This document shows, in pieces, positions 2,457 through 44,425 of a stretch of 64,000 nt of DNA. How positions within the stretch are numbered: position 1 is the stretch's first letter; the number at the start of each line of letters is the position of its first letter. This DNA comes from Escherichia phage vB_EcoM-RPN187, in sequence record OL770074.2. One strand, given 5' to 3'. A program made the translations under genes and the position numbers. The notes below the pieces were generated by a model, which saw only the letters and a program-made list of their open reading frames with translations, was not told the origin of the DNA and did not search any database.

Positions 2457-3143
2457 TTAGAAGTCGTGAGTAGAATCGGCTTCCATCGCAATAACATAAC
2501 TTACTTGGGAGCTTTCAAACTTGGCTGCAACTTTATCACCAGCTCCCCACAACATTACTTTATAGTTACCTGGCTGGATTTTCATATTAGCCATATTGAT
2601 TACGAAGTTAAAATTGTTAGAACCGTCATAATCGGTAAGAGTCAAAGAATACTTAGGACGAGTTAGTCCAGAATCTTCAACTTTATTATAGCCATTGATA
2701 ACAATTTTACCATCTTTATTTGTAATAGCAATTGTATCAATCTGAAGACCACGTGAAACTCGAAGCAATTGTTGAAGGTCTTCAGCTTTAATTTCAGTAA
2801 TCACAGAAGCCACTGGGAATTGAATTGGCTTATTAGGAAAAACAATGGTGCTCTTGTCAGCGGCAGGCCAATAAACCGTGGAACGTGTATCTGCAATTTT
2901 AATATTGCCATCGGTGTGCATTGAAATTTCAGCATCATCAGACACTAGACTCAAAATGCTTAAGAAGCTATTCAAATCATAAAGTGCTACGTCAAAATCA
3001 ATTTCATCAGAGATATTTGCTTCCGCATAAGTGGTGCCATTAACTGCACGAGTCATAATAAATTTACCTTGACTCAGCAGAATGCCAGAGTTAATAGAGG
3101 CAAAGTTTTTCAGAATAGCGATAGTATCTTTAGACAGTTTCAT
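2457..3143 (-). CDS. 45: sliding clamp gp45
   Basis: MKLSKDTIAILKNFASINSGI... matches recalled T4 gp45; ATG at 3141-3143 (track ORF begins 5 codons earlier). Confidence 0.9.
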   Translation of the reverse strand: MKLSKDTIAILKNFASINSGILLSQGKFIMTRAVNGTTYAEANISDEIDFDVALYDLNSFLSILSLVSDDAEISMHTDGNIKIADTRSTVYWPAADKSTIVFPNKPIQFPVASVITEIKAEDLQQLLRVSRGLQIDTIAITNKDGKIVINGYNKVEDSGLTRPKYSLTLTDYDGSNNFNFVINMANMKIQPGNYKVMLWGAGDKVAAKFESSQVSYVIAMEADSTHDF

Positions 3144-3183
3144 TTTATTTCCTTTCAAGACAATTCAAAGTTTAACAAATTTA

Positions 3184-3600
3184 TTATGCAGTAACCATTT
3201 GCTTTTTAATAGCTTCAGGCAGTGATTCAATATATTCTGGAATTTTAGAAGCAACAATTTCGCCGGCTGCAATTAGTTGTTCGTCGGCATCAACACAGTA
3301 GAAATCTTCCAGACGCTCAGAACCATCTTTATCAAGAACGATTTTTCCGCCGGCTTCAATAGAATCTTTATAGTGCTTACGCATCAGATGAATCCACATA
3401 TCAGATACATCGTTATCAATAAAACCATAAATCATAAAACGAGTTTCTTGTGGCAAAGATTGGAGTTTTTTAGCACTTGCGTCATCACAATGCAGGACCC
3501 ATGCTTTACGAACACGATTATGGTTATGTGGGTTAGCGTCAGTACGGATAGAAGTAACTTTCAGATCAGCAGCAGTGAAACCTTTAGCAGTAGTAAACAT
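3184..3600 (-). CDS. rpbA: RNA polymerase-binding protein RpbA-like (by position)
   Basis: 138-aa ORF in the slot that rpbA occupies in T4 between 45 and 46; sequence not independently recognised. Confidence 0.45.
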   Translation of the reverse strand: MFTTAKGFTAADLKVTSIRTDANPHNHNRVRKAWVLHCDDASAKKLQSLPQETRFMIYGFIDNDVSDMWIHLMRKHYKDSIEAGGKIVLDKDGSERLEDFYCVDADEQLIAAGEIVASKIPEYIESLPEAIKKQMVTA

Positions 3601-31498: not shown

Positions 31499-31801
31499 TT
31501 ATTTACCTTTAATTACTTTAGCTGCTTCGATAGCCGCTTGCTGAAGGTCATCCATCGACATACCGAATTTAGAAGCAAAGTTATCAATTTTCTTTTCGAC
31601 AGCATTCAAAGGCTTGGCCTGTTTACCTTCATTAGCGCCAGGAAGAGCGAGAATACGCTCTTTGTCAATATAAAGGCTTACAAGTTTCTTACGGTCTTTA
31701 TCGGACAAATCATGAAATGAATGGGCCTTTTTATTTATAGCGGCTTCTAATTTACCTGCACTCACTCGCGCTTCAGTAATAAATTCTTGATATGTTTTCA
31801 T
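31499..31801 (-). CDS. ipII: internal protein II (capsid-targeted, injected)
   Basis: 100 aa; capsid-targeting leader MKTYQEFITE then ARVSAGKLEAAINKK...; recalled T4 internal-protein family. ipII versus ipIII naming rests on length. Confidence 0.7.
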   Translation of the reverse strand: MKTYQEFITEARVSAGKLEAAINKKAHSFHDLSDKDRKKLVSLYIDKERILALPGANEGKQAKPLNAVEKKIDNFASKFGMSMDDLQQAAIEAAKVIKGK

Positions 31802-31842
31802 ATGTTTCCTTTAAATGTAAATAGGCCTAAATATAGGCCTTA

Positions 31843-32421
31843 TTAATTACCACGGGCTGCATTAGCAACGGCGTAAGCGTACTGAACATTAGCGTCTTTA
31901 AACGTACCTTTAGAGGTATCTAGTTCTGCCTTAAAGCCACCTTTAGCCATAACATCGGCAAATTCTTTACGGAAGGCCATTGCATCAAGACCTTTCCATG
32001 ATGATTTGTGCTTGGCGAATTCAAGACCAGCGTAGTTGACAGCCTTAGCTAATTTATTATCAATGACCCATTTACCGGCTTTAGGCACAAACACCGGGCC
32101 TTTCTGTTTAGAGAATAGTTTTAAATTCCAGCGACGAAGATCACTGTCGGCTTTAACAAAAGCTGCGTCTAAGTTACTAGCAACAACATCTTGAATATGG
32201 CCAAATTTAAGCCCATCAACTTCAATATTTAAATCGGTACGCCAGCGAAGTCCTTCCCAAGCGAAGGCTTTAAAATCAGAAGCTTTTGTGGCTAGATATC
32301 GTTCAAGTGGAGCAGTTTTAGGGTCAAAGCCGTTACCGCCACGATAAGTCCACTCGTCCTTATTAATGCCTTGAGCTTTTCCTGCAAAGGCCTCGGCGAT
32401 AAATTCTTTATATGTTTTCAT
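31843..32421 (-). CDS. ipIII: internal protein III (capsid-targeted, injected)
   Basis: 192 aa; leader MKTYKEFIAE; basic Lys/Ala-rich body. Confidence 0.65.
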   Translation of the reverse strand: MKTYKEFIAEAFAGKAQGINKDEWTYRGGNGFDPKTAPLERYLATKASDFKAFAWEGLRWRTDLNIEVDGLKFGHIQDVVASNLDAAFVKADSDLRRWNLKLFSKQKGPVFVPKAGKWVIDNKLAKAVNYAGLEFAKHKSSWKGLDAMAFRKEFADVMAKGGFKAELDTSKGTFKDANVQYAYAVANAARGN

Positions 32422-32484
32422 TTTTGTTTCCTTGTTTGTTTTGATAGAGTAATTATACCATATTAATACTTAAGCGTAAACTGT

Positions 32485-32745
32485 TTAAGCTTTACCGCCG
32501 GAAATAATTCCGAAGTTGTTAAAATCGTATCCAATATCGTCAACATCTACTTTAGGACTTGTAGCAACATAAGCAATTTCACTACGTTTTGCATAGGTGT
32601 TGATTTCTTTACCATCGCCACCTAAGAAAAAATACCCATTACGTTTTAATGAGCCAAAGTCTTCCGCATCACCAATGAAAGCTTTAACTTTAAATTTAGG
32701 ACCTTTGGCATCTGCTTCAGCGATAAATTCTTGATACATTTTCAT
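32485..32745 (-). CDS. capsid-targeting-leader protein (86 aa), unassigned internal-protein candidate
   Basis: N-terminus MKMYQEFIAE-A shares the IP leader and the I-x-E site. Confidence 0.5.
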   Translation of the reverse strand: MKMYQEFIAEADAKGPKFKVKAFIGDAEDFGSLKRNGYFFLGGDGKEINTYAKRSEIAYVATSPKVDVDDIGYDFNNFGIISGGKA

Positions 32746-32751
32746 TTTTCC

Positions 32752-33165
32752 TTAGTAAATTGATTTACCATAGTATTTGTACCAAGTAGGACGTTGAGCA
32801 ATTTTTTCATCTAAGCGTGCTTGACTTATCGCAATGGACGCTTCGGACGGGACATAATTATTACGAAATTCGGCAGGGATGTCGGAAATATCCTGGACAG
32901 TCGTGTCCTTGATTTTGAAACCACGTTTCAAGCATTCAGCGATTAGCTCGATTTGTCGTAAACGTAAAAATTCGAGTTTGTCGTAAAAGAATGTTACGTG
33001 GCCGGTGCCTAAGATAAATGTTGGAGAGATTTTAAAATCCCTTACACGTTTACCGTTTTGAACATGTTTACGGACTGCACTAAATACACGTGGTAATTCA
33101 CGATACTCAGCCATAAGATGTTGGTCGGTCAGTTCAGAAACAAGTGTTAAATTGATACGAGTCAT
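32752..33165 (-). CDS. denV: endonuclease V (pyrimidine-dimer DNA glycosylase) DenV
   Basis: [35 protein letters not shown]...[23 protein letters not shown], near-identical to recalled T4 DenV; ATG at 33163-33165. Confidence 0.9.
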
Positions 33166-33192
33166 AATTTCCTCCAAGTAGTTGATGAATGT

Positions 33193-33222
33193 ATAATATC
33201 AAAACCCTTGGAGGAAGTAAAC
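33193..33222 (-). promoter_or_regulatory. early promoter GTTTAC-N18-TATTAT upstream of denV
   Basis: Minus strand: GTTTACTTCCTCCAAGGGTTTTGATATTATAC. Confidence 0.5.
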
Positions 33223-33223
33223 A

Positions 33224-33505
33224 CTATTTTTCTGAAGCGCCTGAAATATATTTTTCAAGACGTTGTTTCATTAGCGAGCCGTTCTTAGCGATTTCTTCCG
33301 GTTTATCGCACATACGCAACAAGGCTTCAAGCTTAACGATATCGCTGGTACGTTCAAATTTGCGAGTATCTATCTTACTAGCAAGTTCAGAAATACGTGC
33401 TAATAGACTTTCAGCTTCAACCAAAGCTGCGCCTAGCTTAGTTGCAAATGTGTCAGTAGCTTCGTTAAGAATAGATTCTGATAAAAATTCACTATATGTT
33501 TTCAT
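33224..33505 (-). CDS. capsid-targeting-leader protein (93 aa), unassigned internal-protein candidate
   Basis: ATG at 33503-33505 gives [11 protein letters not shown]...; start overlaps the lysozyme stop (ATGA). Confidence 0.5.
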
Positions 33506-33990
33506 ATATACGCTTTCCAAGTTCCTGTTTTAAATGTTGAGATTACGCGTTTCGCGCGATTAGGTGTCTGACGATACCATTTAGATTGGGCTAGATTTAC
33601 TGCCGCTTCATCCCAACGTTTCTGTTGAAGCATACGAAGAGAATTAGTAAAACCAGCAACGCCTGCTACACCCATTTGGAAGACCATATTGACCAATGCA
33701 CATCGACGAACCGCATCTAAAGAATCATATACCGGTTTAAGTTTAGCATTACCCAAGATTCCTCGAACGGCTTTATCAACGTCTTCATTAAATAGCTTTT
33801 CGGCCTCATCAAGGGTAATTGTACCGTTGCATTTACGTCCGATCATTCTGTCAAGTTCAGCTTTAGCTACGGCTAAAGACGGGTTCTTTGTTACTAAATG
33901 ACCTATGCCAATCGTCCAAAAGCCTTCAGTGTCTTTGTATAAAGACAGTCTAAGACCTTCGTCATTACGAAGCATTTCAAATATATTCAT
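33502..33990 (-). CDS. e: endolysin (T4 lysozyme e)
   Basis: [32 protein letters not shown]...[25 protein letters not shown], very close to recalled T4 lysozyme. Confidence 0.92.
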
Positions 33991-41058: not shown

Positions 41059-41523
41059 TTATTTAATTTGTTTAGCAGACCAGATACGGTCTTTAATAAG
41101 TTTTTGGATATCTTCAACATACTCAAGGCTATGAGCGTGAGGATTATCTTTGAAGCTATGTGCTCGTGCCAGTTTCTGGCCTTCTGTTTTGATTACTAAA
41201 AGCTCTTTAAGAATTGCTTCATACTTAGAAATAATTCCTTTGGCGATATTTTTTTCTTGAGCGGCTTTAGGGTCCGCTTTTGGCGCAGGTGCTTTACCTG
41301 TAGCTTTCTGGAACAATTCACCTGATGCAGCTAGGCTTTTAAAAACTCGGCTAACAGTATTAGCATTAGTAAAACCTTCGGCTTTAAAATCTCTAATAAA
41401 ACGGAAACGTTCTTCATCAGAGGCGTCTTTGTAAGAATATTTACCTGCTCTAATTGCTGCAATCGCAGCGGCTTTTACATCTGAACTAGATTGTTCAGTC
41501 AAAAATTCAGCGTATGATTTCAT
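41059..41523 (-). CDS. capsid-targeting-leader protein (154 aa), unassigned internal-protein candidate
   Basis: N-terminus MKSYAEFLTE-Q with the L-x-E site; Ala/Lys-rich body; isolated between two terminators. Confidence 0.5.
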   Translation of the reverse strand: MKSYAEFLTEQSSSDVKAAAIAAIRAGKYSYKDASDEERFRFIRDFKAEGFTNANTVSRVFKSLAASGELFQKATGKAPAPKADPKAAQEKNIAKGIISKYEAILKELLVIKTEGQKLARAHSFKDNPHAHSLEYVEDIQKLIKDRIWSAKQIK

Positions 41524-43748: not shown

Positions 43749-44021
43749 TCATTTTAAATAAATTGCGTATTTTTTATAGCCACCAGGCTCGTGTCGAAGA
43801 CCCTTATCATTAGCAAAACGCTCAATGTTGTTAATTTGATTCTGGTCAAGTTCAGAGATGTCAAACACGAAATAGTTACGTTTGTTACCAACTGTTACAT
43901 AGTCAGTTAAATCAATACCATATAGGTAATTGATGTCAGCAATCATAGTCTTGACAGCTTTGCTAATTTTTACTTTTTCGTTAAAAGTAGCTTCATTGAT
44001 AAATTCTTTAAATGTTTTCAT
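43749..44021 (-). CDS. capsid-targeting-leader protein (90 aa), ipI-locus internal-protein candidate
   Basis: N-terminus MKTFKEFINE-A; own promoter at 44053-44082. Confidence 0.5.
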   Translation of the reverse strand: MKTFKEFINEATFNEKVKISKAVKTMIADINYLYGIDLTDYVTVGNKRNYFVFDISELDQNQINNIERFANDKGLRHEPGGYKKYAIYLK

Positions 44022-44052
44022 TTTATTTTCTTAATTAATTTTGATAGGACCT

Positions 44053-44082
44053 ACTATAACATAGTCCTATCAACATGTAAAC
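44053..44082 (-). promoter_or_regulatory. early promoter GTTTAC-N17-TTATAGT with hairpin GATAGGAC/GTCCTATC
   Basis: Minus strand: GTTTACATGTTGATAGGACTATGTTATAGTAGGTCCTATC. Confidence 0.55.
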
Positions 44083-44084
44083 TA

Positions 44085-44348
44085 TTAAATACCTGCTTCG
44101 CGCTTAACATAAGCAACATAAGCTTCGATAGCTTTCTTGCTGGTAATTTTTACCTGACCGCGTCCGTTGCCTTCTTTAGAGTTTTTCTTAACAACTACAT
44201 TACCATCTTTAACACCCCATACATGGACATAAGTACCGATGTTTCGGTCGTAGAACATTGCATGGTCGTTGTTGTAAGAGAATGATTCGTAGTTCTCTGT
44301 CAGAGTAGAAGATTGAGATTCAGCGATAAATTCTTTATACGTTTTCAT
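44085..44348 (-). CDS. capsid-targeting-leader protein (87 aa), ipI-locus internal-protein candidate
   Basis: N-terminus MKTYKEFIAE-S; sits just upstream of 57B where T4 carries ipI. Confidence 0.5.
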   Translation of the reverse strand: MKTYKEFIAESQSSTLTENYESFSYNNDHAMFYDRNIGTYVHVWGVKDGNVVVKKNSKEGNGRGQVKITSKKAIEAYVAYVKREAGI

Positions 44349-44382
44349 TTTATTTCCTTGAGGTCGTTTATTTGATAGGATG

Positions 44383-44412
44383 ATAGTAACACACCATCAT
44401 CCTTATGTAAAC
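44383..44412 (-). promoter_or_regulatory. early promoter GTTTAC-N17-TTACTAT with hairpin
   Basis: Minus strand: GTTTACATAAGGATGATGGTGTGTTACTATCATCC. Confidence 0.55.
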
Positions 44413-44425
44413 TGTTTTGTGAAAA

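Follow-up and report, generated by a model that had tools for sequence, protein, structure and literature searches.

This work concerns two small genes in a stretch of 64,000 nucleotides (nt) of Escherichia phage vB_EcoM-RPN187 (record OL770074.2), called the window here, whose positions serve as coordinates throughout. Between 31.5 and 34.0 kb the window holds a single minus-strand gene string, e, ORF93, denV, ORF86, ipIII, ipII, in which two short open reading frames (ORFs) flank the endonuclease V gene denV (32752-33165). ORF93 (33224-33505; 93 residues from its ATG) follows the lysozyme gene e (33502-33990), and ORF86 (32485-32745; 86 residues) lies between denV and ipIII. A first-pass annotation had given the coordinates and sequences of both ORFs correctly, leaving their minus-strand orientation unstated, and had regarded them as likely additional injected effectors of the class of internal proteins (Ips), carrying the leader known as the capsid-targeting sequence (CTS). 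Their place in the Ip class is borne out by leader, locus, and families, and we consider it quite likely that ORF86 and ORF93 are packaged and processed internal proteins. They are not new, however, being long-annotated RB69 ORFs (125c and 127c, respectively). The class, its leader-based detection, the loci, and the name Ip5 are already known as well, and the finding introduces no new concept. The polymorphic-Ip class and its detection by the leader reportedly go back to Repoila et al. (1994), as cited in later papers; the Ip numbering used here comes from GenBank notes and from such papers.

Both ORFs open with the 10-residue leader and the [LI]-x-E protease site of the neighboring ipII and ipIII, as the first-pass annotation held. 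ORF86 begins MKMYQEFIAE/ADAKG, a slash marking a candidate cleavage site, and in ORF93 the 10-residue leader is followed by /SILNE/ATD. The six-frame translation of the window contains seven copies of a strict version of the motif, M[KR]x[YF]x[ED][FY][ILVM]xE, all located where a minus-strand ORF has its first ATG, against a chance expectation of ~0.005 (mean; maximum, 1) in 200 nucleotide shuffles and 200 residue shuffles. In IPIII, experiments have assigned targeting to the aromatic residues 4 and 7 and cleavage to positions 8 and 10 (PMC9026906); ORF86 and ORF93 keep these determinants at residues 4, 7, 8, and 10. The leader is also kept while the bodies diverge, reading MK[MT]Y[QE]EFIxE in the ORF86 family across three genera, and every aligned member of the Ip5 family, to which ORF93 belongs, has Tyr or Phe at position 4, Phe at position 7, and [LI]xE at positions 13 to 15. 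The bodies behind the leaders are unrelated to those of ipII and ipIII and to each other, in agreement with the earlier claim: BLASTP found no significant match among the seven leaderless bodies (best E value, 0.026).

A leader shared by such different proteins could also be a retained or recombination-derived 5' cassette (a translation-initiation region or a recombination hotspot) in front of products that remain cytoplasmic and unpackaged, for instance early proteins made with denV. Conservation of the DNA itself fits such a cassette, the 30 leader nt being on average 79% identical among the seven genes, compared with 33% for the next 15 nt and 39% for the 30 nt upstream. So does the partly degenerate leader of RB69ORF127c, which opens MKTYMNFYQN and reads MKTYMNFYQNLSLNE/A (RB69 locus extract 1711-1992). 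However, the leader differences include synonymous changes (ATT/ATC, GAA/GAG, TAT/TAC, and ACA/ACG), which argues that the constraint acts on the peptide. Even the RB69 leader, which lacks Glu6 and the [LI]xE at positions 8 to 10, retains Tyr4, Phe7, and an [LI]xE (LNE, positions 13 to 15). Moreover, the 10-residue CTS alone suffices to package foreign proteins in T4 (PMC9026906).

That ORF86 and ORF93 might be chance open frames or annotation artefacts, a suspicion that attaches to short ORFs for which Pfam and NCBIfam scans returned no family, is of negligible probability and already refuted by conservation and selection. Indeed, their leaderless bodies match 217 (ORF86) and 496 (ORF93) phage records, and the ratios of nonsynonymous to synonymous substitution rates (dN/dS) against diverged orthologs are 0.11 to 0.20 for ORF86 and 0.13 to 0.33 for ORF93. 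Both have correctly spaced Shine-Dalgarno sequences, and both match PHROG families labeled "internal head protein" (ORF86, phrog_2667, E value of 6e-20; ORF93, phrog_3499, E value of 1e-46). ORF86 and ORF93 are thus genuine genes under purifying selection. In the ORF listing, ORF93 begins farther upstream, at a TTG (33520), whereas related annotations uniformly place its start at the ATG at 33505.

Judged by its sequence, ORF93 is an Ip5 homolog. The comparison with polymorphic T-even Ip ORFs proposed in the first-pass annotation gave a match here, the leaderless body being 47 to 49% identical to annotated ip5/ipV over ~74 residues (tblastn E values of 1e-11 to 3e-12). Among the 496 matching records, ~240 show at least 90% identity and belong to Mosigvirus and VR7-like phages, and ~258 show 44 to 49% identity, belong to Tequatrovirus, and are annotated ip5, ipV, or "Ip5". 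ORF93 is the ortholog of RB69ORF127c, which RefSeq labels "internal head protein" in RB69 and phi25-307. In Tequatrovirus, the Ip5 gene adjoins 57B, in the ipI slot of T4 (GiZh, RB68, MLF4, and Bas37), and the GiZh record carries the annotation "similar to RB15 T6 T2 RB70 Ip5 RB69ORF127c replaces ipI". VR25 has an annotated ip5 between e and denV, which is the position of ORF93 in the window. An AlphaFold2 model built on a shallow alignment is all-helical (helices at residues 10 to 44, 54 to 64, and 69 to 91), with a mean predicted local distance difference test (pLDDT) score of 72.7. In the GenBank record of Bas37 (phage KarlGJung), the Ip5 homolog bas37_0261 is labeled "internal head protein ipI" and the adjacent McrBC inhibitor bas37_0260 is labeled "hypothetical protein" (Bas37/KarlGJung locus extract 1471-2038), and the two are easily mixed up.

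ORF86 is the ortholog of RB69ORF125c (93% identical), likewise labeled "internal head protein" by RefSeq in RB69 and phi25-307. Identities of its body to those in the matching records are 83 to 100% in Mosigvirus, ~71% in Gaprivervirus (VR7 and VR25 gp125), and 64 to 70% in Gelderlandvirus (STP4-a gp116 and a Proteus phage). At the loci of VR25, STP4-a, and the Proteus phage, the homolog lies in the e-to-vs.8 interval among CTS-bearing ORFs (ip7, ip10, and ipIII-like). One further lineage, P0017, with 44% body identity and the leader MQTFHEFLVE, came from an exhaustive HMMER search that covered 1.8 billion representatives; P0017 forms a second copy in Gaprivervirus and Gelderlandvirus phages and lies at the 57B locus in Morganella phage MP1. 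The AlphaFold2 model of ORF86, also from a shallow alignment and, like that of ORF93, of medium confidence, shows a small alpha/beta domain behind a disordered leader (pLDDT, 70; predicted template modeling score, 0.59; one of five models confident). Public assemblies contain deletion variants of the gene: P0018 and P0010 lack residues 18 to 65, joining ...AKGPK to VDVDDIGYDF..., and in P0011 the N terminus of denV is fused to the C terminus of ORF86. A 38-residue PHROG that ORF86 also matches, phrog_35655, is probably explained by such deletion derivatives.

The prohead-protease sites differ between the two proteins. ORF86 is predicted to be cut after Glu10 (IAE/A), at the end of its leader (codons 1 to 10; 32716-32745), yielding a mature product of ~8.2 kDa; in the family alignment, I-x-E at positions 8 to 10 followed by Ala or Ser is invariant, and the leader site is the sole [LI]xE in ORF86, as it is in ipII and in ipIII. 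ORF93 has two candidate leader sites, LSE/S after Glu10 and LNE/A after Glu15. Across the Ip5 family, an [LI]-x-E (LNE or ITE) invariably occupies positions 13 to 15, with Ala or Ser next, and positions 8 to 10 are not conserved, reading LSE in the window, YQN in RB69, LTV in VR25, ATK in GiZh and Bas37, and ATE in RB68. The RB69ORF127c leader, degenerate with LNE kept, also points to Glu15 as the functional Ip5-family cleavage site. A distal site is known from IpI: the RB27 protein starts MKTFKEFTSTTTTPVSTITE/ATL, and mature IPI* (PDB 2JUB) aligns from residue 21, directly after the distal ITE at positions 18 to 20. Since the site at positions 13 to 15 is invariant in the Ip5 family and IpI is processed at its distal ITE, mature ORF93 probably begins at Ala16 (78 residues; 8.6 kDa; isoelectric point [pI], 8.1), after a propeptide of codons 1 to 15 that ends in SILNE (33461-33505). 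Glu10 is possibly an additional site in the window allele. The recognition of a family-conserved candidate site at Glu15 for Ip5-type leaders is a modest addition of the present analysis.

The sole proteomic support that we found for either family comes from a distant ORF86-family member in phage MP1. This protein, which a body-only hidden Markov model of the family scores at an E value of 1e-5, is calculated to weigh 11,213 Da, and its gene adjoins 57B. The table of MP1 virion proteins identified through electrospray ionization tandem mass spectrometry lists "gp136", of 11,210 Da, directly before gp137 (57B), supported by 6 unique peptides and a coverage of 59% (PMC5384007). Because mass and position beside 57B agree, we match the family member to gp136, and this proteomic link to the ORF86 family is another modest addition of our analysis. 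Literature searches found no virion detection of Ip5 or ORF93, and for Mosigvirus no virion proteomics at useful depth: the HY01 paper reports only five major bands, and the RB69 paper on arabinosyl-hydroxymethylcytosine (ara-hmC) applies mass spectrometry to DNA sugars only.

The genomic setting also speaks of Ip genes. The window locus is 99% identical to those of Escherichia phages AV112 and AV113 and ~97% identical to those of PHB12, Shigella phage phi25-307, and phage mogra; the latter two are assigned to the RB69-like genus Mosigvirus, to which the window phage belongs by this identity. Two hypervariable Ip loci are known, e-denV-vs.8 and 57B-tRNA, and ORF86 and ORF93 sit in the former, between e and ipIII. 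The T4-type order, seen in RB55, is e-ipIII-ipII-denV-vs.8, versus e-ORF93-denV-ORF86-ipIII-ipII in the window. Content of the locus differs among RB69, phi25-307, mobillu, VR25, and STP4-a, and Mosigvirus phages vary among themselves in what lies downstream of ORF86. In RB69, the CTS-bearing ORFs 124c (Ip10-like) and 123c replace ipIII and ipII (RB69 locus extract 2795-3465); phi25-307 has all four (phi25-307 locus extract 1115-1444 and 2507-2821); and mobillu has none of them, its ORF86 ortholog being followed by vs.8 (mobillu locus extract 2471-2908). Orthologs of ORF93 and ORF86 are present in RB69, phi25-307, and mobillu alike. Among the Ips at the Mosigvirus locus, these two are the constant ones, an observation that we count as a third modest addition. 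In other phages, members of both families are found beside 57B, at the second Ip locus, which points to the cassette behavior typical of ip genes. As a side observation, RB69 ORF124c appears to be altered at its C terminus (90 versus 104 residues).

From T4, the route of an internal protein is established: the CTS docks, gp21 cleaves after the Glu of [LI]xE, and the mature protein is kept with the DNA and injected (PMC9026906, PMC3012670). We infer that ORF86 and ORF93 follow this route in packaging and cleavage and, by analogy with T4 IPI to IPIII, in injection. The CTS would bind each protein to the scaffolding core while the prohead assembles, and there a gp21-type prohead protease would cut after the Glu of [LI]-x-E (Glu10 in ORF86; most likely Glu15, possibly also Glu10, in ORF93). 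The small soluble mature proteins would then stay in the head with the DNA, enter the next host by injection, and each block a first-line defense against arabinosyl-hmC DNA, such as a particular variant of a type IV restriction enzyme.

As for this last step, the precedents are consistent. Of the T4 proteins Ip1, Ip2, and Ip3, each has its own GmrSD target, which it inhibits: GmrSD-CT596 (IPI*), GmrSD-ECOR21 (Ip2), and GmrSD-ECOR17 (Ip3) (PMC12373910; see also Srikant et al.). McrBC is inhibited by Bas37_0260, which likewise carries the CTS (HIDEN-SEQ preprint 2025, bioRxiv 10.1101/2025.11.20.689424). Silas et al. proposed that the accessory proteins of both Ip loci all target variants of this immune system (PMC12373910). 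Since type IV restriction enzymes are what every Ip-class protein with an established role acts against, anti-restriction is the best inference for ORF86 and ORF93; given that it is drawn by analogy with Ip1 to Ip3 and Bas37_0260, we put it forward tentatively, as a role that these proteins may or may not turn out to have. A more specific proposal, that the two are dedicated injected inhibitors of further defense systems recognizing arabinosyl-hmC DNA (new GmrSD or other type IV variants), would suit the only Ips present in every examined Mosigvirus locus, and we regard it as doubtful.

Several points weigh against these interpretations. The MP1 virion preparation also held a ligase, a sliding clamp, and a RecA-like protein, which are obviously nonstructural (PMC5384007), and the literature yielded no virion, cleavage, or injection data for ORF86, ORF93, or close orthologs. 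Directly upstream of either ORF there is no perfect canonical T4 late promoter, TATAAATA; ORF86 follows denV, which itself stands behind an early-type sigma-70 promoter-like site (TTTACT-17-TATTAT plus TG; 33193-33221, minus strand; a consensus match only). In the body of ORF93, two further family-conserved [LI]xE motifs, LVE30 and ISE40 (residues 28 to 30 and 38 to 40; ~33386-33424), leave the final product uncertain; they lie in the predicted long helix, correspond to LAE and IKE in Tequatrovirus Ip5, and would be either helix-protected or additional processing sites. The deletion variants of ORF86 indicate that the gene is dispensable in at least some settings. With respect to function, neither body has a homology or fold match to a known anti-restriction protein, and the McrBC inhibitor of Bas37 is the Ip6-type neighbor, not the Ip5 homolog.

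The promoter arrangement, with ORF86 starting 6 nt past the denV stop, is the other argument for cytoplasmic products made early behind a merely inherited 5' cassette. ORF86 has its own Shine-Dalgarno sequence. However, the ATGA at 33502-33505, where the stop codon of e (TGA) and the start codon of ORF93 (ATG) overlap, suggests translational coupling of ORF93 to e. No terminator-like hairpin interrupts the coding strand from e through ORF93, denV, and ORF86 until after ipIII; the only one on the coding strand of the locus lies between ipIII and ipII (31823-31840, minus strand). With no terminator between them and the ATGA overlap, late expression of ORF93 and ORF86 by read-through from e is plausible. 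Taking this with the conservation of the leader at the protein level and the presence of a distant ORF86-family member in MP1 virions, we consider an unpackaged cassette product quite improbable.

Packaging and processing might, on the other hand, serve the head itself, with ORF86 and ORF93 acting as core or scaffold fillers, in DNA condensation, or as aids to ejection. Historically, Ips were viewed in this way, as small proteins abundant in the head and embedded in its DNA (PMC3012670). Members of both families are present in practically every Mosigvirus genome, even in that of mobillu, where ipII and ipIII are missing, a distribution more core-like than that of an arms-race gene, and the long helical form predicted for ORF93 could be scaffold-like. 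Yet the predicted mature proteins are near neutral rather than basic (pI of 6.4 for ORF86; for ORF93, 6.3 or 8.1 according to where it is cut), which argues against a simple DNA-charge-neutralizing role. Moreover, ORF86 is deleted in some assemblies, both families move between two accessory hotspots, and all four Ip-class proteins of known function are restriction inhibitors. A role in the head thus seems unlikely, albeit less so than the cassette explanation, and injected internal proteins remain the interpretation that we favor.

PDB sequence searches with ORF86, ORF93, and two other leader-bearing window ORFs, ORF87 and ORF90, returned noise only; large protein searches brought up T-even phage relatives and fragments but neither bacterial nor remote homologs; and IMG/VR scans did not increase the diversity. 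Neither ORF showed sequence or fold similarity to IPI* (PDB 2JUB), and in BLASTP the Bas37_0260 body matched none of the seven window bodies with anything better than an E value of 3.3. The idea that Ip5 is the McrBC inhibitor of Bas37 was ruled out, the inhibitor being bas37_0260, of Ip6 type, and the Ip5 homolog being bas37_0261. A literature search on RB69ORF125c and RB69ORF127c returned nothing.

The other leader-bearing ORFs of the window comprise, first, the neighbors of ORF86. The ipIII homolog (31843-32421, minus strand; 192 residues) has the leader MKTYKEFIAE/A, and the ipII homolog (31499-31801, minus strand; 100 residues) has MKTYQEFITE/A; both identities rest on PHROG matches (phrog_5341, E value of 3e-117, and phrog_7857, E value of 5e-55, respectively) and related records. 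Upstream of ipIII lies an early-type promoter-like site, again a consensus match only (TTTACG-17-TATAAT plus TG; 32452-32480, minus strand). Elsewhere, ORF154 (41059-41523, minus strand; leader MKSYAEFLTE/Q) shares 77% identity with RB27_136, a neighbor of e.8 and rnaC, and belongs to phrog_2280, of "unknown function". The remaining two, ORF90 and ORF87, lie at 43749-44021 and 44085-44348, respectively, both on the minus strand, and apparently fill the ipI slot near the tRNA cluster. ORF87 (leader MKTYKEFIAE/S, with a second LTE at residue 18) matches phrog_13302 ("unknown"), and ORF90 (leader MKTFKEFINE/A) matches phrog_7673 ("internal head protein"). Early-type boxes, (G)TTTAC-N17-TAT(A/T)AT plus TG, also occur upstream of ORF87 and ORF90, at ~44350-44420 and ~44022-44090, respectively (minus strand). 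No IpI homolog was found among the leader-bearing ORFs, which rules out any of them as IpI; the window phage thus appears to be without IPI, although RB69 is reported to have one.

Injected Ips are a phage's first countermeasure to host immunity and are useful as protein-delivery tags. Those with known targets number four, T4 Ip1 to Ip3 and Bas37_0260. The families of ORF86 and ORF93 occur in ~200 to 500 sequenced phages, many of them therapeutic candidates against Escherichia coli and Shigella; since both are widespread and neither has been assigned a target, it would be reasonable to include them in screens matching inhibitors to defense systems. Should the two prove to be dedicated inhibitors, each would represent a new pair of inhibitor fold and target, and the Ip5 family would do so with a propeptide of 15 rather than 10 residues.

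Among known systems, the closest to ORF93 is Ip5/IpV of T2, T6, RB15, RB68, RB70, GiZh, and Bas37 (Bas37_0261), with which it shares a homologous body, the MKT[YF]xEF start, [LI]xE at positions 13 to 15, and the PHROG; these Ip5 genes count among the polymorphic ORFs of the ipI locus described by Repoila et al. (1994). The Tequatrovirus gene is at the 57B locus, replacing ipI, whereas ORF93 is at e-denV, and ORF93 has in addition the canonical LSE at positions 8 to 10 and a C terminus longer by ~8 residues. ORF86 shares leader and position just downstream of denV with the RB69ORF125c family (VR7 gp127/VR25 gp125, STP4-a gp116, and MP1 gp136), a family without a trivial Ip number, from which its differences are no more than allelic. 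Bas37_0260, the Ip6-type McrBC inhibitor, resembles both as a small CTS-bearing protein in an Ip hotspot, next to the Ip5 homolog of Bas37, and is not homologous to ORF86, ORF93, or the other leader-bearing window ORFs. T4 IPII and IPIII, the inhibitors of GmrSD-ECOR21 and GmrSD-ECOR17, whose homologs are adjacent in the window locus, have the same leader and protease site and presumably the same route of packaging, processing, and injection, although they are basic (pI, 9.6), in contrast to the near-neutral ORF86 and ORF93, and their bodies are unrelated. Finally, T4 IPI* (PDB 2JUB), the GmrSD-CT596 inhibitor, belongs to the same class and, as in the Ip5 family, has a long propeptide with a displaced site (ITE, positions 18 to 20).

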